A DNA stretch of 50,147 nt from Thermoanaerobaculia bacterium (GCA_050745445.1 JBOGJN010000212.1:1-50147), one strand, 5' to 3'; shown: positions 1,851 through 46,432, numbered from the stretch's first letter. Notes: generated from the letters alone by a model not told the origin. Numbers and translations are program-made.

Positions 1851-1924
1851 AGCTTTTAGCTCTTGGCCGCTAGCTCTTGGCCAGGAATTCCGAGCCGAAA
1901 GCTAACGGCCAACAGCTAATCGCT
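1851..1924. repeat. Imperfect inverted repeat whose arms are tandem heptamers (AGCTTTT AGCTCTT GGCCGCT AGCTCTT ... GCCGAAA GCTAACG GCCAACA GCTAATC)
   Basis: About 24/31 arm positions are complementary by eye. The loop is centred on GGAATTCC. Lies between the parA start and the stop of the nuclease gene. Confidence 0.75.
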
Positions 1925-1929
1925 TCTTC

Positions 1930-2412
1930 TTACATCCGGTACTTGCCCAGATCGTCCGGGTTCACTTCCTCGAGCCATTTCTTCAGACGCTCGGGGTCGG
2001 GCTCGGTTCCCTCGGCTCGCAGCGTCTTGCTCTTCTCGAGGACCTCCTCCTCGACGAAGATGTCGGCCTGCGAACGCAACGCGAGAGCGATCGCGTCGCT
2101 CGGACGGCTGTCGATCTTCCATGTCTCCTTGCCCCGCGTCAGGTGGATGCGGGCGAAAAAGGTGTTCTCCTTCAGTTCGCTGATGACCACCCGCTCAACC
2201 CGGGTCTCCAGCTCCGTCAGGACGTTTTTCAGGAGATCGTGGGTCATCGGGCGTGGCGTCGCGATCTTTTCCATCTGGATGGCGATCGCATTGGCCTCAA
2301 AGATGCCCACCCAGATCGGCAGAAACACGCCGTCGTCGACGTCCCGCAAGATGACCACCGGCATGTTGGAGACCGGATCCATGAGCAAGCCCTTGATTTC
2401 CATTTTGACCAT
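1930..2412 (-). CDS. Bifunctional nuclease (BFN/DUF151) domain protein
   Basis: PVVILRDVDDGVFLPIWVGIFEANAIAIQMEKIATPRPMTHDLL is typical of the DNase-RNase BFN domain. Confidence 0.8.
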   Translation of the reverse strand: MVKMEIKGLLMDPVSNMPVVILRDVDDGVFLPIWVGIFEANAIAIQMEKIATPRPMTHDLLKNVLTELETRVERVVISELKENTFFARIHLTRGKETWKIDSRPSDAIALALRSQADIFVEEEVLEKSKTLRAEGTEPDPERLKKWLEEVNPDDLGKYRM

Positions 2413-2431
2413 TCGTCCAGTCCTCTCTGCT

Positions 2432-3775
2432 CTAGGCGGCGAGCTCCCCGATCAGCGAGTTAGGCAGACCCCTGATGATACGCACCCGGACGTAGCTGCC
2501 CGTGGCAAGTCCCCGCGGCCCGTCCAGAATGTGGACGATGCGGTTGCAGGGGGTCCGGCCCCGGCTTTGCCCCTTGCGATCTTTGCCCTCGATCAAGACC
2601 TCGAACTGCCGGCCTTCGAGCCCCCGATGGTTTTCGGTTTGCAGGGTCTCCTGTAGCTCGAGCAAGCGGGCGAGCCTCTCGGCCGCGAGCTTCTCGGGGA
2701 CCGCATTCTCGCTGCCCCAGCGGGCCGAGGCGGTTCCGGGGCGCGGCGAGTAGCGGAAGGCGAAGAGGCTGGCAAAGCGCACCGCGCGGACGAGATCCAG
2801 GGTCCGCTCGAAGTCTTCTTCCGTCTCTCCGGGAAAACCGACGATGAAGTCCGACGAGAGGGCGATGTCCGGAACAGCGTGGCGGACGCGCTCGACGATC
2901 TCGAGATAGCGATCGCGGTTGTATCGCCGCTTCATGCGGTAAAGGACGCGGTCGGAGCCGGATTGGGCCGGCAGGTGAAGATACGGGGCGACGATCCCTC
3001 GCCCGGCAAGCGCCTCGATCATCTCCTCGTCCACGAAGCTCGGGTGCGAGGTCAAGAAGCGCAGCCGCTTCAGGTTCGCGACGGCCGAGGCTTTCCGGAG
3101 GAGCCGCCCGAACCCGGTTCCCTCCTCCGGGTCCCGATAGGCGTTGACTGTCTGGCCGAGCAGCGTCACTTCCGTGTAACCCCGCCCGGCCAGGCATGCG
3201 AGCTCCTCGAGGATCTCCCCCGCGCGCCGACTGCGCTGTCTGCCCCGTGTGAAGGGGACGATGCAAAAGGTGCAGAACTGGTCGCAGCCCTCGATGACCG
3301 TGACATACGCCTGGAAGGCGGAGCCGCGGCTGATCTGGCGAAACTGGTAGACCGGAGATTCGTGCGGGAGCTCCACGGCCGCAATCCGGCGCCTCTCCTG
3401 GCGCACGCGTTCGACTATCTTTCCGACCTCTTCCACACAGCCCGGCCCCAGCACAAAGTCCACCCAGGGAGCCCTCTCCAGGATCTCGTCTCCCTGAACC
3501 TGGGCCACGCAGCCGGTGACGCCGACGACCAGATCCGGATTCTCCTGCTTTTGCCGGGAGAGCACGCCGAGCGCGCTGTAAACTTTGTCCACTGCCTTCT
3601 CGCGCACCGCGCAGGTGTTCAGGATCACGACGTCGCAATCCTCCGACTCTTTGGCTTTCCGGAAGCCGCGACCCTCGAGCTGCCCGCTCAGGCGTTCGCC
3701 ATCGAGCACGTTCATCTGGCAGCCCCAGGTCTCCACCCGATAGGAGACAGCCCCCGCCGCCGGCAATTCCGTCAT
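2432..3775 (-). CDS. miaB: tRNA-2-methylthio-N6-dimethylallyladenosine synthase (radical SAM methylthiotransferase)
   Basis: N-terminal UPF0004 motif ETWGCQMN. Radical-SAM CDQFCTFCIVP. C-terminal TRAM-like domain. 447 aa. Confidence 0.93.
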   Translation of the reverse strand: MTELPAAGAVSYRVETWGCQMNVLDGERLSGQLEGRGFRKAKESEDCDVVILNTCAVREKAVDKVYSALGVLSRQKQENPDLVVGVTGCVAQVQGDEILERAPWVDFVLGPGCVEEVGKIVERVRQERRRIAAVELPHESPVYQFRQISRGSAFQAYVTVIEGCDQFCTFCIVPFTRGRQRSRRAGEILEELACLAGRGYTEVTLLGQTVNAYRDPEEGTGFGRLLRKASAVANLKRLRFLTSHPSFVDEEMIEALAGRGIVAPYLHLPAQSGSDRVLYRMKRRYNRDRYLEIVERVRHAVPDIALSSDFIVGFPGETEEDFERTLDLVRAVRFASLFAFRYSPRPGTASARWGSENAVPEKLAAERLARLLELQETLQTENHRGLEGRQFEVLIEGKDRKGQSRGRTPCNRIVHILDGPRGLATGSYVRVRIIRGLPNSLIGELAA

Positions 3776-4449
3776 TCTCGTATCCAGCCGGGCAGGGCGC
3801 CCGCCTTGCGTGCCTTCTCCGGCAGATCGGCTAGCTCCCGCTCGGCGTCCTCCAGGTCTCTTCTGGCCGTCTCGAGTTCCTCGCGCTTCTTATCCCAGGC
3901 CGGCTTGATGATGCCGTCGCGGTACTGGCCGTCATCCCAGGCATAGAAGTCGGTTTCCAGCTTCTTTGTTTCGGCCTCCAGCTGCCGGATGCGTTCTTTC
4001 CCATCCTCGACACGTTTGTTGGCGGCGTGCGCCCGTGCCCGCCACTCGGCCTCCCCCGTTCCCGCCGGGGCCGGCGTCGGCGGCGCAAGCTGCGACGGCC
4101 GCGGTGTGGGCTGGGGGCCGCGGGACGCGGCGGTCGTGAGTCTGCCCTTGTTCGGGTCGGTGACGAGCGTCTTGTTCGTGATGGCAACGCTTGATTTCTG
4201 CTCCTTCGGCTGTTTCGCTTCTTCGGCCGCTCGCACGACATCGTGGAGCGTCTGCCCGGTGGTCGGGGTGTTGACCACGACGGGGGTCGCGCGGGCGCGT
4301 CCGAATCCCCCGCTCAATCGCGGGCGAGGCGTCGGCGTGGGTGACGGCGAAGGTTCTGCCAGCAGCACGGCTGCTGCAAGAAGCAGGAGCCCCAGGTTGA
4401 CAGTCTGCCAGGTTCGAAATTCGAAATCCGGAATCCCAAATCTCTTCAT
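3772..4449 (-). CDS. Hypothetical secreted/membrane-anchored protein with Pro-rich region and C-terminal coiled coil
   Basis: ORF trimmed to MKRFGIPDFEF... at 4449, which forms an ATGA overlap with the upstream cupin stop. Hydrophobic segment LGLLLLAAAVLLA. Its stop overlaps the miaB start. No recognisable family. Confidence 0.6.
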   Translation of the reverse strand: MKRFGIPDFEFRTWQTVNLGLLLLAAAVLLAEPSPSPTPTPRPRLSGGFGRARATPVVVNTPTTGQTLHDVVRAAEEAKQPKEQKSSVAITNKTLVTDPNKGRLTTAASRGPQPTPRPSQLAPPTPAPAGTGEAEWRARAHAANKRVEDGKERIRQLEAETKKLETDFYAWDDGQYRDGIIKPAWDKKREELETARRDLEDAERELADLPEKARKAGALPGWIRE

Positions 4450-4844
4450 GGCGCGCTGGTCCCGGCTCGTCCGTAGGCGTCCTCGAGCCGGACGACGTCC
4501 TCGAGTTCCGGCGAGGAGACCTCGACGAGGTCGCAAGAGTTCTCGGCGCGCAGGCGGTGGCGCACCCCGGGACGCACCCGGTACGCCTCCCCCGGCGAGA
4601 GTCGGATCTGGCGCATCTGCCCGTCCACCTCCACCGAAAGCTCCACCTCGCCCATCAGAACATAGAGAGTCTCGTCTTTTCTTTCATGGTACTGGAGAGA
4701 GAGACAGTGTCCCCCTTCCAGGTGCAGGATCTTTCCCGCGTACCGGTCGTTTTCGGCAAAGATCAGCTCGTGACCCCAGGGCTTCGCGATTCTTCTGACG
4801 CCGCGACCCTCCCGCTCGGCCCGGGGCGCTCCTTCCTCAGGCAT
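4446..4844 (-). CDS. Cupin-domain protein (mannose-6-phosphate isomerase type II-like cupin)
   Basis: KPWGHELIFAENDRYAGKILHLEGGHCLSLQYHERKDETLYVL..GEAYRVRPGVRHRL is a typical cupin 2 fold signature. Confidence 0.8.
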   Translation of the reverse strand: MPEEGAPRAEREGRGVRRIAKPWGHELIFAENDRYAGKILHLEGGHCLSLQYHERKDETLYVLMGEVELSVEVDGQMRQIRLSPGEAYRVRPGVRHRLRAENSCDLVEVSSPELEDVVRLEDAYGRAGTSAP

Positions 4845-6531: not shown

Positions 6532-6619
6532 GGCGAAGGACTTGCGATTGGCAACCGGTGATTGGCGAGGGCCCCTGCCGGGCCTCCAAATCACAGATCA
6601 CCCGATCACAAGTCTCTCC

Positions 6620-7335: not shown

Positions 7336-7375
7336 AAGGCGAGCCTCCGATTCTAAGGCCTGGAGCCGCGGCGTT

Positions 7376-8269: not shown

Positions 8270-8314
8270 GGACAGATCCCTCCCGCCACAGCCGGTGTCT
8301 GCCGCGGCCGGGTG

Positions 8315-10382: not shown

Positions 10383-10400
10383 GTCTTCCTCCCGCTCGGG

Positions 10401-17533: not shown

Positions 17534-17613
17534 GCTCTTAGCTATTAGCTGTTAGCTGTTAGCGACGGGAGCCGACAGGCGCGGCTAAGAGCTAATAGCT
17601 GACAACTAATAGC
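17534..17613. repeat. Imperfect inverted repeat of tandem heptamers (GCTCTTA GCTATTA GCTGTTA GCTGTTA GC ... GCTAAGA GCTAATA GCTGACA ACTAATA GC)
   Basis: 30-nt arms at 17534..17563 and 17584..17613, 24/30 complementary by eye, with a 20-nt loop. Lies between the accA start and the priA stop. Confidence 0.8.
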
Positions 17614-17628
17614 TTTCTTCTTTCTTCT

Positions 17629-20073
17629 TTACATCAGGTCTTGCGGATCCACGTCCACGGCGAGCGCAACTCCCGACGGCGGGTGCTCGGGGATACAGGC
17701 CTCCAGGGCATCCAGCACGCTGCGCCGATTCGCACCCCGAAGGAGGATCTGGTACCGCCAGCGCCCACGCAGACGCTCCAACGGCGCCGGAGCCGGTCCG
17801 GAGATCCGCAGGCTGGAGGTCCCGTCCCCGTGCGGGGCCGCCTCGCCGATCTGCCGGGCCGCCGCCTCGGCCCGCTCCCGATGGACGGAGGACACGAGGA
17901 CAGAGGCAAGCTGCGAGAAGGGAGGATAGAAAAAGGCGCGCCGAAAGGCGAGCTCTTCGCGGGTAAAACCGTCCACGTCGTGACGGGAGGCGTGCCGGAT
18001 CGCGGGGTGCTGGGGATGGAAGGTCTGGACGTGCACCGTGCCCGGGGTCTGGCCCCTCCCGGCTCGTCCGGCAACCTGGGCGATGAGCTGAAAGGTTTTT
18101 TCACCGGAGCGGAAATCGGGGAAGTTCAAGAGCGTGTCGGCCGAGAGGACTCCGACCGCCGTCACGTTGCCGAAGTCGTGCCCCTTGGCCACCATCTGGG
18201 TCCCGATCAAACACGACACGCGAGCGGCCAGGACGTCTTCCAGAACGGCCGCCGCGCCACGCTGGCGCGCCGCGTCCCGATCGAGCACGGCGAACGGCAC
18301 GCCCGGAAAAAGCTCGGCGAATCGCTCGGCCACGCGTTCGGTGCCCGACCCGATCGCTTCGAGGAGCGACCCCCCGCAATCCGCGCAACGCGCCGGACGG
18401 GCCAGACGCTCTCCGCAGTAGTGGCACAGCAACGTGCGCCCCCGGCCGTGCACGGTGCGGCAGACGCTGCAGCGGCTGCAACGAAAGTCGTATCCGCAGT
18501 CGCGGCAGAGCAGAAACGGCGCGAACCCGCGGCGCGGCTGCAGCAGAATCGCCTGCTGTCCGCGCGCGAAGACCTCGCGCAACCGACCGACGAGCGCGCG
18601 CGAGAAGAGGGGAACCCCCTTCTCCTCGGGTCTTGCGGGTTCCCGTCTCAGATCCACCAGATCCACCTGCGGGAGAGGCCGGTCGTCCACCCGCGCGGGC
18701 AAGAGCAGGAGCCGCAGACGCCCCTCGCGCGCCGCCTGGTAAGCCTCGAGAGAAGGCGTCGCCGATCCGAACACCAGTGCGGCGCCGGCGGCGCGGGCGC
18801 GCAGCGCCGCGACGTCGCGGGCGTCGTAGCGCGGCGACTCCCTCTGTTTGTAGGAGGAGTCGTGCTCCTCGTCGACGATGAGAACGCCGCAGTCCGCAAC
18901 CGGCGCGAAGGCCGCCGAACGGGGTCCGATCACGGCGCGGGCCTGCCCGCCGCGGATCCGGTCCCATGCCTCCCCGCGCTCCCGCTCGGTGAGGGCGGAG
19001 TGGAGCACCGCAGCCCGCTCTCCGAACTGCCGGCGCAGTTCCCGGGCAAAGACGGGAGTCAGCGCGATCTCAGGCACGAGCCAGATCGCGCTGCGCCCCT
19101 CTTCGAGCGCGGTCGCGATCACGCGCAGATAGACCTCGGTCTTGCCGCTGCCCGTCACGCCCTGGAGAAGCGACGGGAAGTAGCGCCGCATTCGAATCGC
19201 CGTGCGGATCTCCTCGACGGCGCTCTGCTGCTGGGCGTTGAGTTTAAAGTCTCCTCTCGTCCCGCCCGAGAGGATCATCTCCGTCTCCGGCCGGCGGGAC
19301 TGCTCGAAGCAGGACAACAGGCCGCGGGAAGTGAGCGCTCGTAAGAGCGAAGATCCGGCGCCCGTTTGAAGACGGATCTCGGCCGCGGTGGCAGGCCGGC
19401 CGATCGCATCCAGGAAACCGAGGACTTCGCGGGCGCGCAGACTGCGCCCCGTCAGGGGCGCCCGTTCCTGCTCCTGCGCCTGTGTCGGCAGGTAGGCGCG
19501 CTCGACGCGCTTCCTTGGCTCCGGCGAGGCCGAGACGGTACGGATGAAGCCTCTCTCTTCGAGCGAGCGGATCACCGGGCCGCGACCCGCGACCGAGAGA
19601 TCGGTTACACGCAGCGTCTTGCCGTCGCGCAATCTCTCGAGGACATCGCCTTCGGCGCCATCGGCGCGAGCGAGTGCTCCCTTCTCGGTGACGCGGTACC
19701 GCACGGCCCCCCTCGCGCGCAGACGCGCGGGCAGAGCAGCCTTCAAGATCTCCCCCGTCGAGGCGAAAAAGCGCCGGGCCACACGTTCGGCCAGGACGAG
19801 AAGCTCCTCCGGGCAAACCGGTTCCGCATCGAGAACCTCGAGCAAGTCCCGAAGACCGGCGGTCTGCTCTCCCGAGGCGGAAAGGACGACCCCCGTCAGC
19901 GCGCGCTCGCCAAACGGGACACGGACGCGGCAACCCGGAAGCGGGACCGAAAGAGAGTCCGGAACCCCGTACGAAAACGTCCTGCGTAGCGGCAGCGGGA
20001 GAGCGACCGTGACGATCCTGCCCGTTCGAGACTCAGAAGCGTGCGTGTGTTTCTCGGAAGGTGGAGAGCTCAC
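17629..20073 (-). CDS. priA: Primosomal protein N' (replication restart helicase PriA)
   Basis: GTG start. Walker A GVTGSGKTEVY. DEAH-like IVDEEHD. Cys-rich zinc region CRDCGYDFRCSRCS...CHYCG...CADCG. Confidence 0.95.
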   Translation of the reverse strand: MSSPPSEKHTHASESRTGRIVTVALPLPLRRTFSYGVPDSLSVPLPGCRVRVPFGERALTGVVLSASGEQTAGLRDLLEVLDAEPVCPEELLVLAERVARRFFASTGEILKAALPARLRARGAVRYRVTEKGALARADGAEGDVLERLRDGKTLRVTDLSVAGRGPVIRSLEERGFIRTVSASPEPRKRVERAYLPTQAQEQERAPLTGRSLRAREVLGFLDAIGRPATAAEIRLQTGAGSSLLRALTSRGLLSCFEQSRRPETEMILSGGTRGDFKLNAQQQSAVEEIRTAIRMRRYFPSLLQGVTGSGKTEVYLRVIATALEEGRSAIWLVPEIALTPVFARELRRQFGERAAVLHSALTERERGEAWDRIRGGQARAVIGPRSAAFAPVADCGVLIVDEEHDSSYKQRESPRYDARDVAALRARAAGAALVFGSATPSLEAYQAAREGRLRLLLLPARVDDRPLPQVDLVDLRREPARPEEKGVPLFSRALVGRLREVFARGQQAILLQPRRGFAPFLLCRDCGYDFRCSRCSVCRTVHGRGRTLLCHYCGERLARPARCADCGGSLLEAIGSGTERVAERFAELFPGVPFAVLDRDAARQRGAAAVLEDVLAARVSCLIGTQMVAKGHDFGNVTAVGVLSADTLLNFPDFRSGEKTFQLIAQVAGRAGRGQTPGTVHVQTFHPQHPAIRHASRHDVDGFTREELAFRRAFFYPPFSQLASVLVSSVHRERAEAAARQIGEAAPHGDGTSSLRISGPAPAPLERLRGRWRYQILLRGANRRSVLDALEACIPEHPPSGVALAVDVDPQDLM

Positions 20074-20090: not shown

Positions 20091-20732
20091 CTAGGTCCGC
20101 GACAGCTCGGGCGTCTCGCCTTCGCCCGAGCCCTCCCGGACGAAGATGTAGGCGCGTCGGGCCGGATCCCAGCGGTAGCGCCGCGCCGATTCGTCCTCGA
20201 GGTCGAGAGTGACGACGATCGCGTCGCGGTCAATCGAGAGATCGCCTCGTGCCAGGGAGATGTCCCGCTCGAGAAACGTCCCCGGGTCGAACGCTGGTCC
20301 GCCGGCCGACCGCTCGCGTCCTGTGAAGACCACCACGGAGAACCACGGCAGTCCCGCAGAGGAGTCGCGGCGCACAAAGCCAAGCACGAAGTCGAGAACG
20401 CCGTCGTCGTTCAGATCGCCTCGGACGAAGTAAGCGTGATAGACACCGTAGAGGTTCTTGAAGTCGGTGTCCTGCTCCAAGGAGGAGACGTGATCCGCGT
20501 CCGTCGCCACGCGCAGACTCGGATTGTGTCTGACGAAGTCGTCCACGGCCGGCCTCTCGGCGGGGGTGAACGGGGCGAGACCAGATTCCGCGCGCGCGGC
20601 CACCTCCTGCGCCGCGATTCGGCCGGCTTGCAGCGGAGCGGCCGGTGAGGAGGCTCGCCGGCAGGCGAGGGTTCCCCCCGCCAGCAACAGAGCCGCGGCC
20701 GCTGCGATGTGCCTTTCTCTTGGGAAGTTCAT
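20091..20732 (-). CDS. Hypothetical secreted protein/lipoprotein
   Basis: Trimmed to MNFPRERHIAAAAALLLAGGTLAC (signal/lipobox-like). Contains an FG-GAP/VCBS-like GDLNDDGVLDF segment. No confident family assignment. Confidence 0.6.
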   Translation of the reverse strand: MNFPRERHIAAAAALLLAGGTLACRRASSPAAPLQAGRIAAQEVAARAESGLAPFTPAERPAVDDFVRHNPSLRVATDADHVSSLEQDTDFKNLYGVYHAYFVRGDLNDDGVLDFVLGFVRRDSSAGLPWFSVVVFTGRERSAGGPAFDPGTFLERDISLARGDLSIDRDAIVVTLDLEDESARRYRWDPARRAYIFVREGSGEGETPELSRT

Positions 20733-20796
20733 ACGTGCGAATCCACATTCTACGGCAGCGGCAGCCACGCGCGATTCTGCTAATGTTGGCGAAGAT

Positions 20797-20874
20797 GAGG
20801 ACGTAGGAGGTAGGACGTGGGAGGTAGGGTTTGTCTGTCGTCCCTACCTCCTACCACCTACGTCCCACGTCCTC
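20797..20874. repeat. Imperfect inverted repeat built of NNGTAGG heptamers (GAGG ACGTAGG AGGTAGG ACGTGGG AGGTAGG G ... CCCTACC TCCTACC ACCTACG TCCCACG TCCTC)
   Basis: 33-nt arms at 20797..20829 and 20842..20874, 28/33 complementary by eye. Lies in the divergent intergenic region. It is the same unit family as 46355..46432. Confidence 0.8.
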
Positions 20875-22277
20875 GTCTTCAGAAGGAGGTTCCTCTGCGG
20901 CAGGAAAGCGACAGCCTCGGCGTTCGGGAGATTCCAGACGACGCCTATTGGGGCGCGCAGACCTCGCGCGCCGTCGAGAACTACGCCATCTCGGGGGAAC
21001 GGGCGCATCCCGAGGTCGTCTTCGCCTATGCCCGAATCAAGAAGGCCTGCGCGGAGACAAACGGAGATCTCGGACGCCTTCCCGCCGAGAAGGTCCGCGC
21101 GATCGTTCAGACCTGCGACGAGATCCTGGACGGGCGACACCTCGAGCAATTCGTCGTGGATGTCTATCAGGCGGGCGCCGGAACCTCCTTTCACATGAAC
21201 GTCAACGAGGTGATCGCGGGGCGTGCGGCCGAGATCCTGGGCTCTTCTCGCGGTGACCGGTCACGGGTCAACCCGAATGACGATGTGAACCTCGGCCAGT
21301 CCACCAACGACACGTTCCCGGCCGCGCTGCACATGGCGGCGATCGCCGTGGGGCGGCGGCTTTCGGCCGATCTGGGCAGGCTCGCCGGCGCGTTCCGGCG
21401 CAAGGGGGAGCAGTTTGCGGGAATCGTCAAGTCGGGGCGGACACACCTGATGGACGCCGTCCCGGTCACTCTTGGCCAGGAGTTCCGCGCCTTCGCGGCT
21501 GCCCTGGAGCACCGCCGGCAGGCTCTCGACCGCTCCCTGGACGGCCTGCGCGAGCTTCCACTGGGGGGCACCGCGGCCGGCACGGGTCTGAACACCCCGC
21601 GCGGGTTTCGTGAAAAGGCGATTGCGCGCCTGGCCGAAATGACCGGAGAGGCGTTCGCCCCGATCCCCGATGCGCGGGAAGGCCTCCAGAGCCGGGCGGC
21701 GGCGGGCGATTACTCGGCCGCGCTGCGCGGCTTCGCCGTGGAGCTCTCGCGGATCGCCAACGACCTGCGGCTGCTGTCTTCCGGCCCCGCCACCGGACTC
21801 GAGGAGATCCGGCTTCCGGCCGTGCAGCCCGGCTCCTCCATCATGCCGGGCAAGGTGAATCCCTCGCTGCTCGAGTGCCTGAACATGCTTTGCTTTCAAC
21901 TGGTCGGCATGGACACGGCGAACATGCTCGCCGTCGGAGCGGGACAGCTCGAGTTGAACGTGATGATGCCGCTTCTGGCCTACAATTTGACGCGGGGGCC
22001 GCAGCTCTTTCTGAACTTTCTTCCGATCTTGCGGGAGAAGTGCGTGGAAGGCATCACGGCCAACCCGGAGAAGTGCCGGCATTATCTGGAGGAGTCGCCT
22101 TCGGTGGTAACGGCGCTCACGCCCCGGATCGGCTATGCGAAGGCGGCGGAGGTCTTCAAAGAAGCCGTGGCTCGCGGGGTCCGCGTCCGGACCGTGCTTC
22201 TTGAGAAGAAGATCCTGACGGAGAAGGAACTGGATGCCGCCCTGACCCCCGAGGCGCTGCTCGGGCCTCTGGAGTGA
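20817..22277 (+). CDS. aspA: Aspartate ammonia-lyase (aspartase/fumarase superfamily)
   Basis: VDVYQAGAGTSFHMNVNEV, GRTHLMDAVPVTLGQEFRAF and LPAVQPGSSIMPGKVNP resemble AspA more than FumC. The start is uncertain. The track start is a GTG inside the hairpin at 20817, and a CTG at 20895 sits 5 nt after GAAGGAGG. Confidence 0.88.
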   Translation: MGGRVCLSSLPPTTYVPRPRLQKEVPLRQESDSLGVREIPDDAYWGAQTSRAVENYAISGERAHPEVVFAYARIKKACAETNGDLGRLPAEKVRAIVQTCDEILDGRHLEQFVVDVYQAGAGTSFHMNVNEVIAGRAAEILGSSRGDRSRVNPNDDVNLGQSTNDTFPAALHMAAIAVGRRLSADLGRLAGAFRRKGEQFAGIVKSGRTHLMDAVPVTLGQEFRAFAAALEHRRQALDRSLDGLRELPLGGTAAGTGLNTPRGFREKAIARLAEMTGEAFAPIPDAREGLQSRAAAGDYSAALRGFAVELSRIANDLRLLSSGPATGLEEIRLPAVQPGSSIMPGKVNPSLLECLNMLCFQLVGMDTANMLAVGAGQLELNVMMPLLAYNLTRGPQLFLNFLPILREKCVEGITANPEKCRHYLEESPSVVTALTPRIGYAKAAEVFKEAVARGVRVRTVLLEKKILTEKELDAALTPEALLGPLE

Positions 22278-23170: not shown

Positions 23171-23205
23171 TGAGCTGACAGCTGAGAGCTGACGGCTGAG
23201 AGCTA
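23171..23205. repeat. One-armed tandem heptamer array (T)GAGCTGA CAGCTGA GAGCTGA CGGCTGA GAGCTA
   Basis: Five NAGCTGA units read directly. No complementary arm was found nearby. The last unit contains the UDG stop codon (23203-23205). Confidence 0.7.
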
Positions 23206-24942
23206 TTTCCCTGCGAGATAGTCCCGCACGAGCTTCATGTCCTCCCAGACGTCCTTCTTGCGCTCCGGAGAGCGCAACAAGAAGGCAGTGTGGAAGGTCG
23301 GCATGACCCGCACGCCGCGGGCCGTTCGCCAGTGGCCGCGCAGCCTCCCGATGGTGTCGTCGGTCTCGAGGATGACCTGCGCCGCGAAGGTGCCGAGCGT
23401 CACGATCACCTTGGGCGAGATCAGCCGGATCTGTTCTTCCAGGAAGGGGCGGCAGGCGGCCACCTCCTCCGGCTCCGGATCGCGGTTGTTGGGCGGGCGG
23501 CAGTTATGGACCACTCCGCCGGAGGTGACGAAGTTGTGAGTGTCTTCGACGTCGATACAGAAGAACGTCGTGTCCGTTCGGACGCGTTCCGTGACGTCCT
23601 TCACGTCGGCCTCCTCATAGAGAACCTCCGGAGCCTCTCGCCGCAGCCGGGATGGGTCGAAGGGCACCCGAACCGCGGTTTCAGGATGAAGCTTGTACCG
23701 CATCGACGGCGGCACGTAAGGGGCGATGCGCTCGGCCAGCCTCCGCGTCGTCGAGACATCGAAGTACAAGCGTCCACGCGCGGCCTTGGCAGGCAGCCCG
23801 ACTCGAGCAAGTTCCCCCAACAGGATCTCGAGATCGGACTGTATGAAGCCGCAGGTTGCGATCTCGGCGAGCGGCTGACGCGGCGGCCGAATCCGCGTAT
23901 ATCCGTCGTCCATAAACCACACCGCTAGCATGCGATCGTTCAATCTGCCAACGATGGAGAGCGGAACGCGCTTCTTCGGCCGGTAAAACTCCCGGCGAAG
24001 AATACCGAGCGCCCGATGCGCCAGGGTACGCACGTGGATGACCGGATAGGATTTCGCCCCTCCAACTACGGCCGCCACGGAAAGCGTTTGAATCCGAGGA
24101 TGGAGTTCTTCCAGGAGGTCCGCTTTGAAAGCGGCGTAGTCGGCCTGTGCGGCGGAATGGCCGAAGCAAAGGTACGCAGTACGTGCGCTGAGATGGCCGT
24201 CCCCGAGGAGCGTCCCCCAGACGATGTCGCGAGCCAATGGACTCAAGCCCTGGCCTGTCGCGATACGGGCGCCGGGCTCGAGGCGCTCGACCAATACGTA
24301 ACCCTGGTCGGTGAGAACCGGATGATCACCCGTCAACTCGATTCCGACTCGGCCCAGTCCGGCGCGCTTGGCGGACCGATATGTCAGGCTAAAGACGCGA
24401 CGCCGCCCGAGCGGCGTCGCGTGCCAGCCGACGACCCGTCGGGGAATGATCCGGCCCGCAGCATCGACAGACATGACAGTCCCGCCATACCGGCGGCGGA
24501 CCAGACGGCCGATGCGCTCCCATGAACCGTCGCCAAGCTGTACGGGCGCGTTGTACCTGAGACACTTGATTACATTCGCAATAAAGACATCCTCCCGCTT
24601 TCTCCCCATCGCCTCGATGATCTTGGTCAAGAGCTGGCCGGCGCGGCCGACGAAGGCCAGTCCCTGCTCATCCTCGTCTCGTCCCGGCGCCTCCCCCACG
24701 AACATCAGCTCGGCCTTCGGGTTTCCTTGACCGAAGACGATGTTCGTTCTCCCCTTCGAAAGCTTGCAGCGAGGGCAACCGGCGATGAATTTCTGGAGTG
24801 ATGTCAGATCTGACATAGATCCGGGCACAAGCGCGGGAACCCCGGAGACCGCGGGCCGGAGGAACATCTCGGTGACTCCCAGGTCGCGGAAGAACTCGAG
24901 CTGCTCGGTGAGTGGATGCGAAGGCTTCATCACGCCCCTCAC
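23203..24942 (-). CDS. Family-4 uracil-DNA glycosylase interrupted by an intein (precursor 579 aa, predicted spliced extein 225 aa)
   Basis: Exteins carry [31 protein letters not shown]|CRPPNNRDP and [10 protein letters not shown]. The start is either GTG 24942 or ATG 24930. Confidence 0.9.
23503..24564 (-). mobile_element. Intein (Hint splicing domain with embedded LAGLIDADG-type homing endonuclease), 354 aa in frame
   Basis: Begins [14 protein letters not shown] (Cys1). Block B LTGDHPVL (TxxH). LAGLIDADG-like LLGDGHL and WFMDDGY. C-terminal [21 protein letters not shown] is followed by a +1 Cys (codons checked: GTT=Asn at 23503-23505 minus, GCA=Cys at 23500-23502 minus). Confidence 0.85.
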
Positions 24943-31493: not shown

Positions 31494-31521
31494 AGGCGTG
31501 AGGCGTCAGGCGTGAGGCGAA
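31494..31521. repeat. Tandem heptamer array AGGCGTG AGGCGTC AGGCGTG AGGCGAA
   Basis: Four units read directly in the intergenic region 31461..31578. Confidence 0.7.
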
Positions 31522-31546
31522 GGCCGTCGCCCGGTCCCGTTTCCGG

Positions 31547-31577
31547 GCTGAGAGCTGAGAGCTGACCGCTGACAGCT
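31547..31577. repeat. Tandem heptamer array GCTGAGA GCTGAGA GCTGACC GCTGACA GCT
   Basis: Read directly. Abuts the stop codon of the membrane-protein gene (31579). Same GCTGANA unit as at 36943..36973 and 23171..23205. Confidence 0.7.
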
Positions 31578-36102: not shown

Positions 36103-36137
36103 CCGTTAGCCGTTAGCCATTAGCCATTAGCCGAAGA
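36103..36137. repeat. Tandem heptamer array CCGTTAG CCGTTAG CCATTAG CCATTAG CCGAAGA
   Basis: Read directly, 6 nt upstream of the rluB start codon (minus-strand sense). AGCCGAA pairs with TTCGGCT at 36154..36160. Confidence 0.75.
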
Positions 36138-36156
36138 AATGCGTTTCCATCGTTTC

Positions 36157-36205
36157 GGCTTACCGCTTACGGCTCACGGCTCACGGCTCACGGCTCACGG
36201 CTCAC
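36157..36205. repeat. Tandem heptamer array GGCTTAC CGCTTAC followed by five perfect GGCTCAC units
   Basis: Read directly. The last unit contains the scpB stop codon (36202-36204). Confidence 0.85.
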
Positions 36206-36891
36206 GCGTTATCATCGTCCTCGTCCTCATCATCGTCTTCGGGATCGGACAAGGTGGAGACGAAGGGCGCGGGGAGCGCCTGCGCGGCCTCCGGGTCAGA
36301 CACCGTTGCTGAAAGGTCCTCCTCCAGCTCCTCCGGCTTTGGGAGTTCCTCGAGCTGCTTCAAGCCGAACCGGATCAGAAACTCATGGGTCGTGCGGTAG
36401 AGGAACGGCGTTCCGACCACCGGTTTTCGGCCCGCCGTCGTGATGAGGCCCTTCTCGAAGAGCGTCCGGACCACGGCGGCCGAATTCACATCCCGGATCT
36501 CCTGGATCTCCGGAAGCGTGATCGGCTGGCGGTAGGCGATGATCGCCAGAGTCTCGAGCGCGGCCAACGAGAGCCGGCTCCTCTCGGTGACCTCGTGGAA
36601 CTTGCGAAGCAGCGAGTCGAACTCGGGCCGCGTGACATATCTCCATCCTCCGGCCACCGACTCGAGCCGGATCCCGCGTTGAGGCTGCTCCGCGTCCGCG
36701 CGAAGCATTTCCAGGGCCTCGCGGATTGCCCCGCGAGTGGCCTCGAGCACGTCCGCCAGATCTTTCTCGGAGATGGGGCGCGGGCAAGAGAAGAGAAGGG
36801 CGTCGAGCGCGGCGCGAACCCTTGCCGGGTTGTCTTGCCGTGGCCGTTCCGGTTGAGTCTCGGCTGGCTCCGTCGCCGTCGTCTCGGTCAT
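36202..36891 (-). CDS. scpB: Segregation and condensation protein B
   Basis: LDALLFSCPRPISEKDLADVL, two winged-helix ScpB repeats, and an acidic tail DPEDDDEDEDDDNA. Confidence 0.92.
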   Translation of the reverse strand: MTETTATEPAETQPERPRQDNPARVRAALDALLFSCPRPISEKDLADVLEATRGAIREALEMLRADAEQPQRGIRLESVAGGWRYVTRPEFDSLLRKFHEVTERSRLSLAALETLAIIAYRQPITLPEIQEIRDVNSAAVVRTLFEKGLITTAGRKPVVGTPFLYRTTHEFLIRFGLKQLEELPKPEELEEDLSATVSDPEAAQALPAPFVSTLSDPEDDDEDEDDDNA

Positions 36892-36899
36892 GTCTCCAA

Positions 36900-36973
36900 G
36901 CTTTCAGCTCTCAGCTTTCAGCTCCCCTACTCGTCGTCTCCGGCTGAGAGCTGATAGCTGACAGCTGATGGCT
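36900..36973. repeat. Imperfect inverted repeat of heptamers (GCTTTCA GCTCTCA GCTTTCA GCTCCCC ... GCTGAGA GCTGATA GCTGACA GCTGATG GCT)
   Basis: About 21/25 complementary positions by eye, with a ~15-nt loop. Fills the scpA-scpB intergenic gap. Confidence 0.8.
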
Positions 36974-36976
36974 TTC

Positions 36977-37744
36977 TCACCGGTAAGTATCGCGCACCTG
37001 GTCGGCCGAGAACGGAACTTCGGTGCGGCTGACATGGATCTCCCCGAAGGGCAACGGCTGGAACGCGCGGACGACCCCGAGCCGGATCAGCTCCAGGGCT
37101 GCCAGGAAGACCGTGACGGCCTCGGCGCGGTAGTGCATCTCGCCCAAGAACTCCAAGAGCGGTAACGTCCCGGCCCCTTCCAGCCGAGTCACGAGCTCTT
37201 CCATTTTCTTGCCGACCGAGAAACGCAGGTGCCGGATCTCCAGGGCCGGCGGGTGGGACAACTGGTAGCGTTCCGCGGCCTTCCGAAACGCGTCGATCAA
37301 ATCGAAAAGGGAAACTTCGAGTGAAGGCGAGGAATCCCCCGATCTCGGGATCTGGCTCTCGGGCCGGGGCCAGAGCCCGGCGCGTAACGTATCGATCTCG
37401 TGGAACGACTCGGCCATTTTCTTGTAGCGCTCGTACTCGAGAAGCCTCCGGGCCAGAGCCTCCCGCGGGTCCTCCTGCGGCGGGCCGGTAGGATGCGGAA
37501 GGAGCATTCTCGACTTGATGTAGATCAGTTCGGCCGCCAGGGCCACATATTCCGAAGCGACATCCAGGTCCAGCTCCAGCATGGTGTCCAGGTACGAGGT
37601 GTACTGCTCGGTGATTTCCGCGATGGGGATGTCGGTGATCGAAACCTGGTTGATCCGAATCAGATGCAGCAGCAGGTCCAGGGGACCACTGAACGCACCG
37701 ATCTGAACAGGCGGGAGGGCGCTCTCGGTGTGTTCGTCGGACAC
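36977..37744 (-). CDS. scpA: Segregation and condensation protein A
   Basis: GTG start. FSGPLDLLLHLIRINQVSITDIPIAEITEQY is the ScpA/kleisin N-terminus. Confidence 0.92.
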   Translation of the reverse strand: MSDEHTESALPPVQIGAFSGPLDLLLHLIRINQVSITDIPIAEITEQYTSYLDTMLELDLDVASEYVALAAELIYIKSRMLLPHPTGPPQEDPREALARRLLEYERYKKMAESFHEIDTLRAGLWPRPESQIPRSGDSSPSLEVSLFDLIDAFRKAAERYQLSHPPALEIRHLRFSVGKKMEELVTRLEGAGTLPLLEFLGEMHYRAEAVTVFLAALELIRLGVVRAFQPLPFGEIHVSRTEVPFSADQVRDTYR

Positions 37745-40316: not shown

Positions 40317-40327
40317 CGGATCTCCTC

Positions 40328-41587: not shown

Positions 41588-41736
41588 CGTGCCTCCTCCT
41601 TGCCATTCCCGTCCAGGCTCCAAATCCGGCCCGGCAGGGCCACCTCGATGGGCTTTTCGTAGATCATACGGTGAGAAGGGCTCCAACAGATGCCTCCACG
41701 GCGCGATCCGATCCTCTCCCCGCCCGCGGAGGACGC

Positions 41737-41761
41737 GAAACCTTTCCCGGCTCCGGGCGTC
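41737..41761 (+). promoter_or_regulatory. Candidate ECF-type promoter (GAAAC-N16-CGTC) upstream of the ECF sigma gene
   Basis: GAAAC at 41737-41741 and CGTC at 41758-41761, 36 nt before the ATG at 41797. This is a pattern match only. Confidence 0.3.
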
Positions 41762-41796
41762 TCCGGAAGTGCCGTGCCGATCGGAACGAAGCGAAA

Positions 41797-43277: not shown

Positions 43278-43290
43278 GAGGAGCGCGAGA

Positions 43291-45312
43291 ATGCGGATCG
43301 TAACCTCCAAGACTTCCGGCGCGTCTCTCTCGACGATGAGCAAAGAAACGAGAATCCCGGGCCTCTCGTCCCGAAGCGAGCATCCCGACTGGGCAGGGCT
43401 CTGGCTGTTGCTCGTCCTCGGCCTTCTCCTGATGCTTGCGGCGACCGTTTCACGGGCGGAGCCCGACGGCTTCACGGCGCAGCGGGTGGACCACTTCGGC
43501 GCGACACTCGGGCCTTCCTCCACCGTGCGGATCCAGAACATTTCGGGCGACATCCTGGCCTCCCCCGGCAAGGAGTTTTCCGCGACCGTCACGCTGACCG
43601 TGACCGCCCCGACACAGAAGCGGGCCGAAGAGGCTCTGGCGAAGACGAAGATCGAGCAGCAGCGGGACGACGATGAGTTCTCACTGGAGACTCGTTGGCC
43701 CGGCTCTCGCGGCTCCGACTTCGGCAGCCGGCGACACGGAGAGTCCCGCTGCCGCGACTGCAAGATCACCGCGAAGTACGAAGTCTTCCTTCCGCCCGGC
43801 GTGAACGCGGTACTCCACACGGTCAACGGAGAGGTCCACGTCCGCGAACTGGACGGGGAACTCGACCTCCAGAGCGTCAACGGGGACGTGCTGGCGCGAG
43901 GATCACGCCAGTCGGTCACGGCCCAGAGCGTCAACGGCAAGATCGACGTGGCCGCGCAGGCCCTACCGTCGGATGCCTCGCTGGAGCTGAAGACCGTCAA
44001 CGGAGCCGTCGTTCTGACGCTTCCGAAAGACGCCACATTCGAGCTTTCGGCCTCCACGATGAACGGCACGATCGCCTCGACCTTCCCCCTCCCCTTCCGT
44101 GGGGGGACTCCGGAGGCGGAGGAGCGTCACCTGCTGTCCAGGCCGCTGCTCAACGGCGCAGAGGCGCCGCGCAAGAAGGAGCCCGCCTCGGCTGCCCCGC
44201 GGCCGCCCCGGCACGTCACAGTGCGGGACCGGGAAGACGGGGGGGTCGAGGTGGATGTCCAGGAGATCGAGAGAGAAATCGAAGAGTCGATGAGGGAGAT
44301 CGAAGTCGAGATTCGGGAGTCGATGCACGAGCTGGATCGGGCCCAGCACGAATTGAGCCGCATAAGGATTCTCAACCCGCGGCGCGAGTACTCCGGCTCC
44401 ATTGGCCAGGGAGGGGCGAGCGTGAGCCTCTTGACCTTGAACGGCGCCATCAGCCTGCTGGCCGCGGGGACCAAGGAGAGCGACGCGAAGCCTCTCGTTT
44501 CACAGCGGCGCTCCATCGTCGTGACCGTCCCACCCGTACAGGTGAAGGTCATCAGGCCGGCTCCCGCGGCGCCGCCCGCTCCCCCGGCCCCACCGGCGCC
44601 TCCGGCGGCGCCCATGCCCCCCAAAGAGGGCGAGGACGTCGTTCGGGGAGACATCGCGGGGGACTTCTTCTCGACCTCCGGGCACGGGGATTACCACGTG
44701 GGGCACGTGAGCGGGAAGGCCAGGATCCTGACGCACTCGGGTGAGATTCGTGTGGCCTCCACCGGCGCAGACGCCGATCTGAAGACCTACGGAGGCGACG
44801 TCGTCATCGGCTCCGTCGGCGGAGACCTGAAGGCGCAGACGCTGGCCGGTGACATCCAGGCGCAGTCCGTCGCCGGCGGCGTCAGGGTGGAGACTTCGGG
44901 AGGAGACATCCGGATCGACCGCGTGAAGGCGTCCGCCGAGGCTCGCACGGCGGGCGGAGACATCGTTCTCTCTTCCGTCGGGGGCGGTGTGCAGGCGGAC
45001 ACGGCGGGCGGAGACGTCCGGGTGACCGTCGTCTCGCGGGAGGCAAGGGCTGGCGTCTCCATCCGCAACTCGGGCGGGGACGTGACGCTCACGCTGCCGG
45101 CCGACTTCCGCGGCGATGTGGATCTCGGGGTCTCCGGTTGTGCCGGGTTCGAAGAGACGCTGATCCACTCCGATTTTCCCGAGATCGCGCTGACGCGCAA
45201 GTCCGGCTCCCAGCACGCTTCGGGGACCTTGAACGGAGGCGGCTCGAAGGTGGTGGTGCGCGCGACTTCCGGCGAGATCCACCTTCGAAAGGGCCCGCCG
45301 GCCGGCTCCTAG
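43291..45312 (+). CDS. DUF4097 (putative adhesin/beta-helix) repeat protein with coiled-coil and Pro-rich linker
   Basis: N-terminal TM/signal GLWLLLVLGLLLMLAA. Two blocks of NG[DEK]I/V and GGD[IV] beta-helix repeats (e.g. TYGGDVVIGSVGGDLKAQTLAGDIQAQSVAGGVRVETSGGDIRI). Linker PAPAAPPAPPAPPAPPAAPMPP. Confidence 0.8.
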   Translation: MRIVTSKTSGASLSTMSKETRIPGLSSRSEHPDWAGLWLLLVLGLLLMLAATVSRAEPDGFTAQRVDHFGATLGPSSTVRIQNISGDILASPGKEFSATVTLTVTAPTQKRAEEALAKTKIEQQRDDDEFSLETRWPGSRGSDFGSRRHGESRCRDCKITAKYEVFLPPGVNAVLHTVNGEVHVRELDGELDLQSVNGDVLARGSRQSVTAQSVNGKIDVAAQALPSDASLELKTVNGAVVLTLPKDATFELSASTMNGTIASTFPLPFRGGTPEAEERHLLSRPLLNGAEAPRKKEPASAAPRPPRHVTVRDREDGGVEVDVQEIEREIEESMREIEVEIRESMHELDRAQHELSRIRILNPRREYSGSIGQGGASVSLLTLNGAISLLAAGTKESDAKPLVSQRRSIVVTVPPVQVKVIRPAPAAPPAPPAPPAPPAAPMPPKEGEDVVRGDIAGDFFSTSGHGDYHVGHVSGKARILTHSGEIRVASTGADADLKTYGGDVVIGSVGGDLKAQTLAGDIQAQSVAGGVRVETSGGDIRIDRVKASAEARTAGGDIVLSSVGGGVQADTAGGDVRVTVVSREARAGVSIRNSGGDVTLTLPADFRGDVDLGVSGCAGFEETLIHSDFPEIALTRKSGSQHASGTLNGGGSKVVVRATSGEIHLRKGPPAGS

Positions 45313-45337
45313 GCGATCGAGAGGCTCACGCCCAGCT

Positions 45338-46324
45338 TCACCGAATGCGAAGCACCTTCACTCGATCTATGTCCGCTTCATTTCCGAAGCCGAACCTGGG
45401 GTCATGGCGCTTGCCCCCCGAAAGGTAGTCGCGGATCCCGCTCCGGAACTCCCGCCAGGGCCCTTCGAAGACCGCGAGTGTCAGCGAGATGTCGGCCGCG
45501 TTGTCTCGCGAGAGGCTCGCGAGCTGGTCACGCGTCAGCGGCGGAGCCTCGAGCCACCCTTTTCGGGCCAGCCACTCGAAGCGGCCGGCCAGGAACCGTC
45601 CCCACCAGAGGGGAAAATGCACGAGAGGCTTGCGGGGCTTCCCAACCGCCATGGCGATCTCCCGATAGATTTCGTTTAAGGTCAGTGTCTGCGGGCCGCC
45701 GACCTCGAAGGCCCGGCCCACCGTCTCGGGCTTCTCGAGCGCGTCGGCAAACACGCGCGCGACGTCGTAGACCGAGACGGGCATGAATCTCGTGGTCCCC
45801 GGGCCGATGACAGGGATGAAGAGGGGGTTGTGCCTTACGATCGGGGCGAGAAGCGAGACGAAGCCGTCTCCCGGCCCGAAGATGATCGAAGGGCGGAAGA
45901 TCGTCCCGTCGAGTCCCGATGCCCGGACCACCTTCTCGCCGGCGGCTTTTGTCCGGCCATACTGCGACGGCGAGTCTTCGGAGGTCCCCATCGCGCTCAT
46001 GTGGAGGAGCCTGCGCACGCCGGCGCTGCGCGCCGCGCCGACGACGTTTTCCACCGCCACGCGATGCATCCGGTCGAAGCTCTGGCCCACCGTCTCGTGG
46101 ATGATTCCGACGAGGTGCACAACGGCTTCCCGCCCCGTGCAGGCCGCCGACAGAGAAGGGGGATCGAGCACGTCGCCGCGCAGGGTCTCGACCGGTCGGT
46201 TGTAGCGGTTGCGCGTTGCGGCCTCGGCGCGCGCGAGGATCGCGACCGCGTGACCTCGCCGCAGGAGCGCGTTGACCAGGTGTGTTCCCACAAAACCCGT
46301 TCCACCCGTCACCAGAACCTTCAA
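45338..46324 (-). CDS. NAD(P)-binding atypical SDR (NDUFA9/complex I 39 kDa-like epimerase family)
   Basis: The track ORF starts at ATG 46354, directly abutting the hairpin and with no SD. TTG at 46324 is preceded by AAGGGAGG and gives MKVLVTGGTGFVGTHLV, a typical Rossmann N-terminus. Confidence 0.85.
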   Translation of the reverse strand: MKVLVTGGTGFVGTHLVNALLRRGHAVAILARAEAATRNRYNRPVETLRGDVLDPPSLSAACTGREAVVHLVGIIHETVGQSFDRMHRVAVENVVGAARSAGVRRLLHMSAMGTSEDSPSQYGRTKAAGEKVVRASGLDGTIFRPSIIFGPGDGFVSLLAPIVRHNPLFIPVIGPGTTRFMPVSVYDVARVFADALEKPETVGRAFEVGGPQTLTLNEIYREIAMAVGKPRKPLVHFPLWWGRFLAGRFEWLARKGWLEAPPLTRDQLASLSRDNAADISLTLAVFEGPWREFRSGIRDYLSGGKRHDPRFGFGNEADIDRVKVLRIR

Positions 46325-46354
46325 CGTCCCTCCCTTTGCGGCACTGTCTATCAT

Positions 46355-46432
46355 GAGGACGTAGGACGTAGGTGGAAGGTGGTAGGCCCGCGACCCACGC
46401 CCTACCTCCTACGTCCTACCACCTACGTCCTC
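46355..46432. repeat. Imperfect inverted repeat built of NNGTAGG heptamers (GAGG ACGTAGG ACGTAGG TGGAAGG TGGTAGG ... CCCTACC TCCTACG TCCTACC ACCTACG TCCTC)
   Basis: Arms at 46355..46386 and 46400..46432. Same heptamer family as 20797..20874. Lies between the SDR start and the recG stop. Confidence 0.8.

Follow-up and report, generated by a model that had tools for sequence, protein, structure and literature searches.

The 50,147-nt contig JBOGJN010000212.1 of a Thermoanaerobaculia bacterium (GCA_050745445.1), the whole of which is the window analyzed here, contains eight intergenic elements built from tandem heptanucleotides, six of which fold into long hairpins through the pairing of two facing heptamer arrays. 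The window has a GC content of 66%, its ScpB is nearest to proteins of Thermoanaerobaculia (Acidobacteriota) metagenome-assembled genomes, and it is a piece of the core chromosome of such a bacterium. The elements are the acidobacterial counterpart of the short tandemly repeated repetitive (STRR) sequences of cyanobacteria and of the GGGAATC arrays of Xanthomonas, so that the kind itself is already described. We give about an even chance to the explanation that they are palindromic spacers whose heptanucleotide arms grow by slippage and which, co-transcribed with their operons, serve as intercistronic RNA stems resembling repetitive extragenic palindromic (REP) sequences and not as terminators.

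The periodicity was established with a scan that asks for 16 or more matches out of 21 at lag p and uses 50 dinucleotide-preserving shuffles as the control. At a period of 7 the window yields 14 arrays against a shuffle mean of 0.26 (maximum 2); periods 4-6 and 8-12 yield 0-3 arrays each, at or near shuffle level, which leaves 7 as the sole enriched period within 4-12. Twelve of the 14 arrays are intergenic, where intergenic DNA amounts to ~2.8 kb or 5.5% of the window (binomial p = 7e-14), and two weak arrays lie in coding DNA at 4103 and 4408-4444. A preliminary description of this DNA had proposed eight intergenic loci of period 7, which holds, and the arrays are in excess of what shuffled sequence gives. 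Tandem Repeats Finder reports period-7 rows at seven of the eight loci (17534, 20798, 23173, 31494/31547, 36103/36156, 36899/36943 and 46356/46397); at 1851 it reports no array, the repeat being more degenerate there, but among the inverted repeats of the window this locus is the longest. A super-period of 14 nt fits better than 7 at 20798, 23172, 36943 and 46393. With at least three head-to-tail units, intergenic placement, multiple loci and variable copy number, the elements belong among heptanucleotide long simple sequence repeats, that is, among STRR in the broad sense.

Six loci (1851, 17534, 20797, 36103, 36900 and 46355) fold arm against arm on either strand into interrupted stems of 25-40 bp. 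On the minus strand their RNA folds have energies of -36 to -59 kcal/mol and z scores of -4.9 to -8.3, on the plus strand the z scores are -4.4 to -10.2, and with DNA parameters they are -3.8 to -6.4. None of 200 shuffles folds as well as the locus from which it was made, so the predicted folding advantage is present on both strands. Inverted arms had been recognized at five loci and regarded as typical of most; hairpins in fact form at six, and the generalization stands for these while 23171 proves to be a lone array and 31494 a set of two arrays that are not complementary. Several of the stems, most clearly those at 36103 and 36900, alternate about six pairs with one mismatch, every seven bases.

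On the coding strand, none of these stems has the form of a canonical intrinsic (Rho-independent) terminator. A U tract is absent from the coding strand behind all six, with 0-3 U in the following 10 nt, and a terminator scan of the window gives matches at shuffle level, none of which equals the long arm-to-arm stem of any element. Together with a location inside housekeeping operons, this upholds the earlier view that the elements are not simply terminators. On the plus, antisense strand, T-rich tracts follow the stems of loci 1, 2, 7 and 8 because a purine-rich leader lies after the stop codon, and from the sequence antisense transcription could be stopped by these four stems. Such leaders (GAAAG; AAAGAAGAAAGAAGAAAG at priA) separate the stop codon from the first unit at 1925-1935, 17614-17631, 36974-36979 and 46433-46439. 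Read on the minus strand, on which nearly all genes of the window lie, the elements start 0-20 nt past an upstream stop codon and end a few bases short of the next start of an open reading frame (ORF); the exceptions are locus 3, in a divergent region, and locus 4, in a convergent one (Table 1).

Table 1. Heptanucleotide elements of the window. Units are given in the minus-strand reading for elements assigned to that strand; energies and z scores are for RNA folding.
Element	Position	Strand	Context	Arrays and units	Inverted repeat and folding	Tandem Repeats Finder
Locus 1	1851..1924	minus	hairpin between BFN-domain gene stop (1930) and parA GTG start (1839)	arms ~1851-1884 and 1891-1924; ATTAGCT/GTTGGCC ... 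AAGAGCT; AGC at phase 1 modulo 7 in both arms	arms 41 nt, 80% complementary; -50.4 kcal/mol; z -7.6 (minus), -6.1 (plus)	
Locus 2	17534..17614	minus	hairpin between priA stop (17629) and accA start (17511)	arms 17534-17563 and 17584-17614; 5' arm GAAAGCT ATTAGTT GTCAGCT ATTAGCT CTTAGCC; 3' arm TAACAGC x2 TAATAGC TAAGAGC	arms 24 nt, 88% complementary; z -4.9 (minus), -5.8 (plus)	period 7
Locus 3	20791..20880	none	GTAGG+NN hairpin in divergent region between hypothetical gene (20091-20768, minus) and aspartase/fumarase-class gene	arms 20791-20829 and 20842-20880; GAAGGAGG Shine-Dalgarno follows at ~20881	arms 39 nt, 85% complementary; -59 (minus), -64 kcal/mol (plus); z -8.3, -10.2	period 14 (94% matches) better than period 7 (79%)
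Locus 4	23171..23205	minus	single array without partner, convergent intergenic region; begins at stop codon of intein-containing UDG gene	TAG CTCTCAGCC GTCAGCT CTCAGCT GTCAGCT	no folding advantage; z 0.0 and -1.0	period 7 (80% matches), period 14 (94%)
Locus 5	31494..31577	minus	chimeric element between DUF6677 gene stop and 63-aa gene	(NTCAGC(T/G)) x4 31547-31577; GC-rich central hairpin ~31529-31549; (NNCGCCT) x4 31494-31521	no complementarity between the two arrays; z -0.8 and -2.4	
Locus 6	36103..36206	minus	hairpin between scpB stop (36202) and rluB-like start (36097)	5' arm (GCCGTGA) x5 + 2 variant units, 36156-36206, stop codon included; 3' arm (GGCTAAY) x4, 36103-36133	6 bp + 1 mismatch per unit; -53.4 kcal/mol; z -5.7 (minus)	score 81, 7.3 copies, 93% matches
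Locus 7	36899..36973	minus	hairpin between scpA stop (36977) and scpB start (36891)	5' arm GAAAGCC ATCAGCT GTCAGCT ATCAGCT CTCAGCC; 3' arm GAGCTGA AAGCTGA GAGCTGA AAGCTT	-45.2 kcal/mol; z -6.5 (minus)	periods 7 and 14
Locus 8	46355..46432	minus	GTAGG+NN hairpin between recG stop (46437) and NAD-epimerase ORF start (46354)	arms 46355-46386 and 46401-46432	arms 32 nt, 81% complementary; -47.3 kcal/mol; z -5.7 (minus), -6.5 (plus)	
Weak extra array	4413..4442	minus	first 12 codons of hypothetical secreted-protein ORF	TTCGAAA x2, TCCGGAA, TCCCAAA		

It had been thought that the loci share architecture and not sequence, but two unit families can be recognized. In the first, found at six loci and read on the transcribed strand, the 5' arm consists of T(C/T)AGC(T/C)N units and the 3' arm of their complement RGCTRAN, with AGC in one phase per arm; its short form is TCAGC+NN/GCTGA+NN. 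The second, found at three loci, is GTAGG+NN / CCTAC+NN or CGCCT+NN. Loci 3 and 8 carry GTAGG+NN / NN+CCTAC units, and locus 5 joins a TCAGC-type 5' array to a CGCCT-type 3' array. Moreover, the 5' arms of loci 2 and 7 (17534 and 36900) are almost identical, aligning nearly base for base with the variable bases included. Among 292 partner-arm units from other contigs, the GCTGA core (positions 2-6 of AGCTGAN) is 92-99% conserved against 38-43% for the two flanking positions, and the unit is therefore a 5-nt core followed by two free bases. Arms typically comprise ~4 units.

Loci matching the pattern TCAGCTNTCAGCTNTCAGC number at least 120 in metagenome contigs with GC fractions from 0.32 to 0.75 and at least 120 in IMG/VR viral contigs, and TCAGC arrays are common in soil metagenomes. 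Among the 120 viral loci listed, 30 have more than one array and six have exact convergent pairs. Three permuted control heptamers give 42, at least 120 and 27 loci in viral contigs, of which 6, 1 and 2 have multiple arrays and none a pair. Since the control CTCGAT, with mostly single matches and one sample heavily represented, also reaches at least 120 loci, the total count is no proof that TCAGC is special; only the multi-copy rate and the inverted pairs differ. Arrays start a median of 7-8 nt past the stop codon, and the median distance from the end of a GCTGA array to the start that follows is 9-19 nt. Two IMG/VR contigs, L179 (1-12560) and L219 (1-14652), are structural modules of tailed phages with tape measure protein, head-tail adaptor, head protease and major head protein, and in both a heptamer array or hairpin is present at most gene junctions, which is hard to reconcile with efficient termination. 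In L219 the unit families TCAGC, GGGAATN, CAGGATT and GTGAAGG stand side by side, and in L179 several copies share a TAAAACGCGC-like loop. In L156, a 126-aa gene (2104-2484, minus) within 2076-2524 is flanked by TCAGC-type and GCTGA-type arrays on its own strand, so the 'loop' of an inverted pair can be a whole gene. The AT-rich viral contigs L465 (2513-2620 and 4690-4795), L559 and L561 contain multi-copy elements of the form (GTAGGGT)x3 ... (ACCCTAC)x3 with a conserved interior of ~70 nt; judged by this layout, they look like true MITEs (miniature inverted-repeat transposable elements) whose terminal repeats are heptamer arrays.

Read on either strand, a hairpin element presents its arms in one order, which gives it an intrinsic handedness. 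This order is fixed. TCAGC arrays have a complementary array downstream in 44 cases and upstream in 2 among the metagenome loci, and in 44 and 6 cases among the viral loci; with each pair counted once, the TCAGC arm comes first in 43 and the GCTGA arm in 5 (p = 1e-8). Of 43 pairs from other families, 28 begin with the purine-rich arm and 8 with the pyrimidine-rich one (p = 0.001), and GTAGG arrays have their CCTAC partner downstream in 21 cases and upstream in none. The bias holds over 92 pairs, is followed by all six hairpins of the window, and is obeyed arm by arm in the chimeric locus 5. What could impose one orientation on these arms? Avoidance of Rho by a C-poor first arm fails, as the first arm of the TCAGC family is the more C-rich one. 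Stop codons in all frames were dropped as a cause because they are found in some arms of either type, as was Chi-like protection of a fragile center because several unrelated cores occur in one genome, and a shared NAG phase is inseparable from purine richness.

The history of the elements can be followed at orthologous gene junctions in relatives, here contigs with 75-92% ScpB identity that were fetched through homology searches; an exact-sequence look-up of the window ScpB returned no other contig. Between scpA and scpB, a heptamer hairpin is present in the window and in six relatives (L017, L018, L019, L449, L450 and L451), and its cores change in both arms together: TCAGCT/AGCTGA in the window and L017, TCAGTT/AACTGA in L018, L019 and L449, TCGGCT/AGCCGA in L450, and CAGTCGA/TCGACTG in L451. 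The 3' arm at this junction has three units in the window as against four in L017. Between scpB and rluB, the 5' arm has seven units in the window as against 3-4 in L017, L448, L018 and L019, with five identical GCCGTGA units where one or two are found in the orthologues; conservation of the loop extends to L017 and L448. Unit copy number is thus variable across relatives in the arms at both junctions. At scpB-rluB, L450 has no element and its genes overlap, and L451 has a single array of another family. The locus 5 junction has the same chimeric architecture in L018, a TCAGCT array only in L451, and is empty in L019, whose two genes share a GTGA overlap; relative to L019, locus 5 is an insertion of ~115 nt. 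In the more distant Thermoanaerobaculia L001 and L003-L006 the genes abut at both scpB junctions and arrays are absent there, and L007 (Terriglobales) has a CTCAGTT/AACTGAG hairpin between scpA and scpB. L451 carries 12 arrays in 20.7 kb and has a lone array at 15526. These comparisons indicate that an element is inserted where genes are tightly packed and then persists long at its junction, while its arms change in length by steps of 7 or 14 nt and are both replaced or converted in concert.

The anatomy of the elements, part of their turnover and their unlikeness to terminators can be read directly from these alignments and folds, and from them we infer a role at the RNA level. In the explanation we favor, the arms would lengthen and shorten by in-register slippage of 7 or 14 nt, a reading backed by the 14-nt super-periods at four loci and by the five identical GCCGTGA units at scpB-rluB, and the arrays would be confined to non-coding DNA, presumably because an insertion or deletion of 7 nt shifts the reading frame. 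An element fills the gap from the stop codon of one gene to the ribosome-binding site or start of the next; it would be co-transcribed with the operon and give a very stable stem of 25-40 bp with a mismatch at roughly every seventh position. Perfect long palindromes are unstable, and the regular mismatch may be tolerated or even favored. Such a stem would not end transcription and would take the part of an extragenic palindrome of the REP/BIME type: it may block 3' exonucleases and delay ribosomes terminating a few bases upstream of it, and by bringing the upstream stop and the downstream start together at its base it would let the operon tolerate the element.

Several observations weigh against this explanation. 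Related lineages do without the elements, and any function is therefore dispensable. Loci 23171 and 31494 are unable to form a long stem, and 31494 is nonetheless conserved in L018. At the variable base the two arms give 30% Watson-Crick pairs against 25% in shuffles (standard deviation 5%, 23 hairpins), a covariation that is not significant and so provides no evidence for a selected stem; if the arms are under selection to pair, that selection allows a regular mismatch. Alternatively, core complementarity could follow from two convergent arrays of one motif, as two such arrays are complementary by construction. The evidence for selection on arm pairing is accordingly mixed, with concerted core changes that preserve complementarity and a variable base without covariation. 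The fixed orientation, the recurrence of one TCAGC core in contigs with a GC content of 32-75% and the 5+2 pattern of the unit go beyond what slippage alone would produce, and what points to a REP-like function is anatomy.

An alternative hypothesis, which we regard as possible but unlikely, is that the elements are a functionless by-product of replication or repair prone to 7-nt slippage, which would seed arrays wherever frameshifts are harmless and leave the hairpins to persist as neutral sequence. Passages of PMC4679880 and PMC4692102 that cite Mrazek (2007) describe heptamers as more common in many prokaryotes than any other class of long-unit simple sequence repeat and relate proposals of polymerase slippage and of a polymerase footprint as the explanation. 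Presence and absence among close relatives, rapid change in copy number and occurrence in all kinds of intergenic context, in phages and chromosomes alike, all fit this hypothesis. Neutral decay should nevertheless strike all seven positions of a unit, whereas five core positions are conserved at the level given above and two are free. An orientation fixed across families, a junction that stays occupied across lineages of 75-92% ScpB identity and a typical arm size of ~4 units also argue against it.

The fixed arm orientation would be expected of terminal inverted repeats, and we consider it doubtful, with a low probability, that the elements are non-autonomous mobile elements of MITE or REPIN type with heptamer arrays as their ends and an enzyme encoded elsewhere in the genome. 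Locus 5 as a clean insertion against overlapping genes in L019, the near-identity of the 5' arms of loci 2 and 7 down to their variable bases, the common loop of the L179 copies and the multi-copy elements of L465, L559 and L561 are in its favor, and the conserved interiors of the latter together with the shared L179 loop make a mobile origin possible for some families. In the window, by contrast, the elements have inverted ends but unrelated, unique interiors, as BLAST of each loop and non-array flank against the window and ~500 loci returns only self and orthologues, and no target-site duplication is definable, the single empty-versus-filled site sharing TGA only. No transposase, RAYT-like or reverse transcriptase gene is found among the genes of the 50-kb window. 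Chimeric two-family elements (locus 5 and its L018 counterpart) are a poor fit to one transposase that recognizes both ends, and arm length changes in place.

Could the arrays instead be read by a protein? It is improbable, to about the same degree as a mobile origin, that they are oriented binding sites for an oligomeric nucleic-acid-binding protein of the cold-shock-domain or HutP/TRAP type, with one monomer per 7 nt, which would mark gene boundaries and for which the hairpin would be secondary. A unit made of a 5-nt core and a 2-nt spacer suits such a protein, as do the lone arrays (23171, and L451 at 15526), the conserved non-complementary pairs (31494 and L018) and the position of single arrays, of which 35 of 45 TCAGC arrays lie nearer the upstream stop and 37 of 68 GCTGA arrays nearer the start; this polarity could also be inherited from decayed hairpins, and the two origins are inseparable. 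There are precedents in CspB of B. subtilis, with one protein per heptamer according to the passage that reviews it in PMC4679880, and in the partner postulated for the heptamers of Nostoc (bioRxiv 10.1101/2022.06.06.494920). There is, however, no candidate protein so far, several unrelated cores occur in one genome, and the cores would be base-paired and hidden in stable stems.

A very unlikely but comprehensive idea is that the arrays are scars of polar, reiterative 3'-end synthesis, in which, after a break in a spacer, each 3' end would gain a few copies of a templated 7-nt unit, as from a telomerase, before the two ends are joined. A bacterial reverse transcriptase, DRT10, makes 7-nt tandem-repeat DNA with imprecise junctions (bioRxiv 10.64898/2026.04.29.721553). 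If true, this origin would cover the fixed orientation, since the synthesized unit would come first on both strands, as well as arms that share a core and differ in their variable junction bases, chimeric elements, single arrays and the arm size of ~4 units; it would also cover clean insertions between overlapping genes and the wholesale replacement of both arms at one junction. Transcription terminators or attenuators, finally, are suggested by very stable GC-rich stems directly behind stop codons and by the antisense T-rich tracts at loci 1, 2, 7 and 8, but with no coding-strand U tract at any of the six stems, terminator-like matches at shuffle level that never equal a long arm-to-arm stem, and elements lying within scpA-scpB-rluB and separating most genes of phage late operons, where read-through is required, this reading has very little probability.

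Heptanucleotide arrays have been known since 1990, and the STRR units of heterocystous cyanobacteria, reportedly described in that year by Mazel et al., are CCCCAGT, TTGGTCA and CAACAGT. The window elements are not built from these units, their own being TCAGC+NN and GTAGG+NN in a Thermoanaerobaculia host, but the resemblance to STRR arrays noted in the preliminary description is borne out by the period of 7, the several unit families per genome and the intergenic placement, often by start codons. The arrays of cyanobacteria differ in being mostly single and direct, with few inverted pairs in Nostoc (PMC4692102), and in lying in AT-richer genomes. In Nostoc, heptamers affect the expression of recF and recO in reporter assays, and a regulatory role has been proposed (bioRxiv 10.1101/2022.06.06.494920). 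Direct TAACTGA repeats of marine Beggiatoaceae are almost all intergenic and end just before start codons (MacGregor 2015, PMC4679880). They share with the present elements arrays of 2-6 units that end a few bases before a start codon, a sporadic phylogenetic distribution, and a unit one base off the 3'-arm unit (NAACTGA in L007 and L019, NAGCTGA in the window); they differ in having one inverted pair in 170 sets, a single favored unit and no predicted hairpin.

The closest parallel in layout had been overlooked, as no GC-rich version with inverted pairs was recognized at the outset. Rehm et al. (2015) describe 70-75 convergent inverted pairs of GGGAATC heptamers in the GC-rich Xanthomonas campestris and X. 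axonopodis, intergenic, transcribed, and kept in position while variable in length (PMC4692102). Convergent pairs of this type, with the same unit on opposite strands and close together, occur at six of the eight window loci. The likeness extends to a GC-rich genome, intergenic tandem 7-nt units in facing arrays able to form a stem-loop, elements that are mostly transcribed in Xanthomonas and keep their position between species while length and sequence vary, and a G-rich array that comes first on each strand, which is the orientation rule found here. Xanthomonas differs in using one G-quadruplex-forming unit with up to 14 units per array, whereas the window has at least two families, no G3 runs and arms of ~4 units, with at most GG in most copies of its units; it also belongs to another phylum, and the stems described here have a regular mismatch about each seventh base. 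A literature search for heptamer or heptanucleotide repeats in Acidobacteria found no description; for the units AGCTGA and TCAGCT, the Beggiatoa paper (PMC4679880) was the only match, through an entry in a table.

The REP, BIME and REPIN elements of Proteobacteria are likewise imperfect palindromes in intercistronic and 3' operon spacers, transcribed and not terminators. REP sequences are said to stabilize upstream mRNA and, where they lie near a stop codon, to influence how the gene upstream is translated (work attributed to Newbury in 1987 and to Liang, Rudd and Deutscher in 2015). A REP, in contrast to the present elements, is one conserved sequence per genome and is tied to a RAYT transposase. 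The window elements have no internal REP-like consensus and no single shared palindrome of 20-40 nt, their arms being alike only in the 5-nt core; they have microsatellite arms, unique interiors and no RAYT in the window. REPINs consist of two REP units in fixed inverted order (PMC3116915). Rfam 15 at the gathering score gives no match on either strand of the whole window, so that the elements belong to no curated RNA family there, and a scan for tRNA and tmRNA finds none.

The genes among which the elements lie are core genes, comprising parAB, PTS EI/HPr, rapZ, hprK, hpf, rpoN, lpt genes, recJ, accA, priA, an aspartase/fumarase-class lyase, coaBC, gmk, lpxB, rpsA, cmk, rluB, scpAB and recG. 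At locus 3, a strong GAAGGAGG Shine-Dalgarno sequence within 20881-20900 precedes the aspartase/fumarase-class gene, which has no in-frame ATG, GTG or TTG from there to its conserved N-terminus; its likeliest start, judged from this arrangement, is a CTG at ~20895, and the listed GTG start at 20817 falls inside the hairpin. The gene that ends at locus 4 (23203-24942, minus) belongs to the uracil-DNA-glycosylase superfamily and is split by an intein, with Pfam UDG in two stretches, LAGLIDADG_2 (homing endonuclease) and Intein_splicing. The weak extra array in Table 1 has 17 of 21 matches in the period scan, and a Pfam search of the ORF that holds it gave no hit; chance or co-option could account for this array, which makes its place in the family doubtful. 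Repeats of 18 nt and 27 nt, both multiples of three, at 44556-44613 and 44812-44876 in a DUF4097 'toastrack' gene have nothing to do with the heptamer family and are in-frame coding repeats of an ordinary kind. At the contig end, just downstream of parB, 87-121 holds 3.5 copies of the 10-nt unit GATAACGTCT, whose other strand contains TTATC; it may be origin-proximal or related to DnaA or ParB.

Beside cyanobacteria and Xanthomonas, Acidobacteriota are a third well-separated lineage with intergenic heptanucleotide arrays, and the elements described here set rules for any explanation of them: a 5-nt core with two free bases, about four units per arm, one orientation across unrelated families, placement tight to stop and start codons, replacement of both arms in concert, and presence at most junctions of two tailed-phage contigs. 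Of these, the fixed orientation and the 5+2 design of the unit are the most notable features, and the rules could separate mutational, mobile and regulatory origins. In soil metagenome-assembled genomes, predicted RNA stems of -36 to -64 kcal/mol within housekeeping operons matter for gene calling, start-site assignment and operon prediction.

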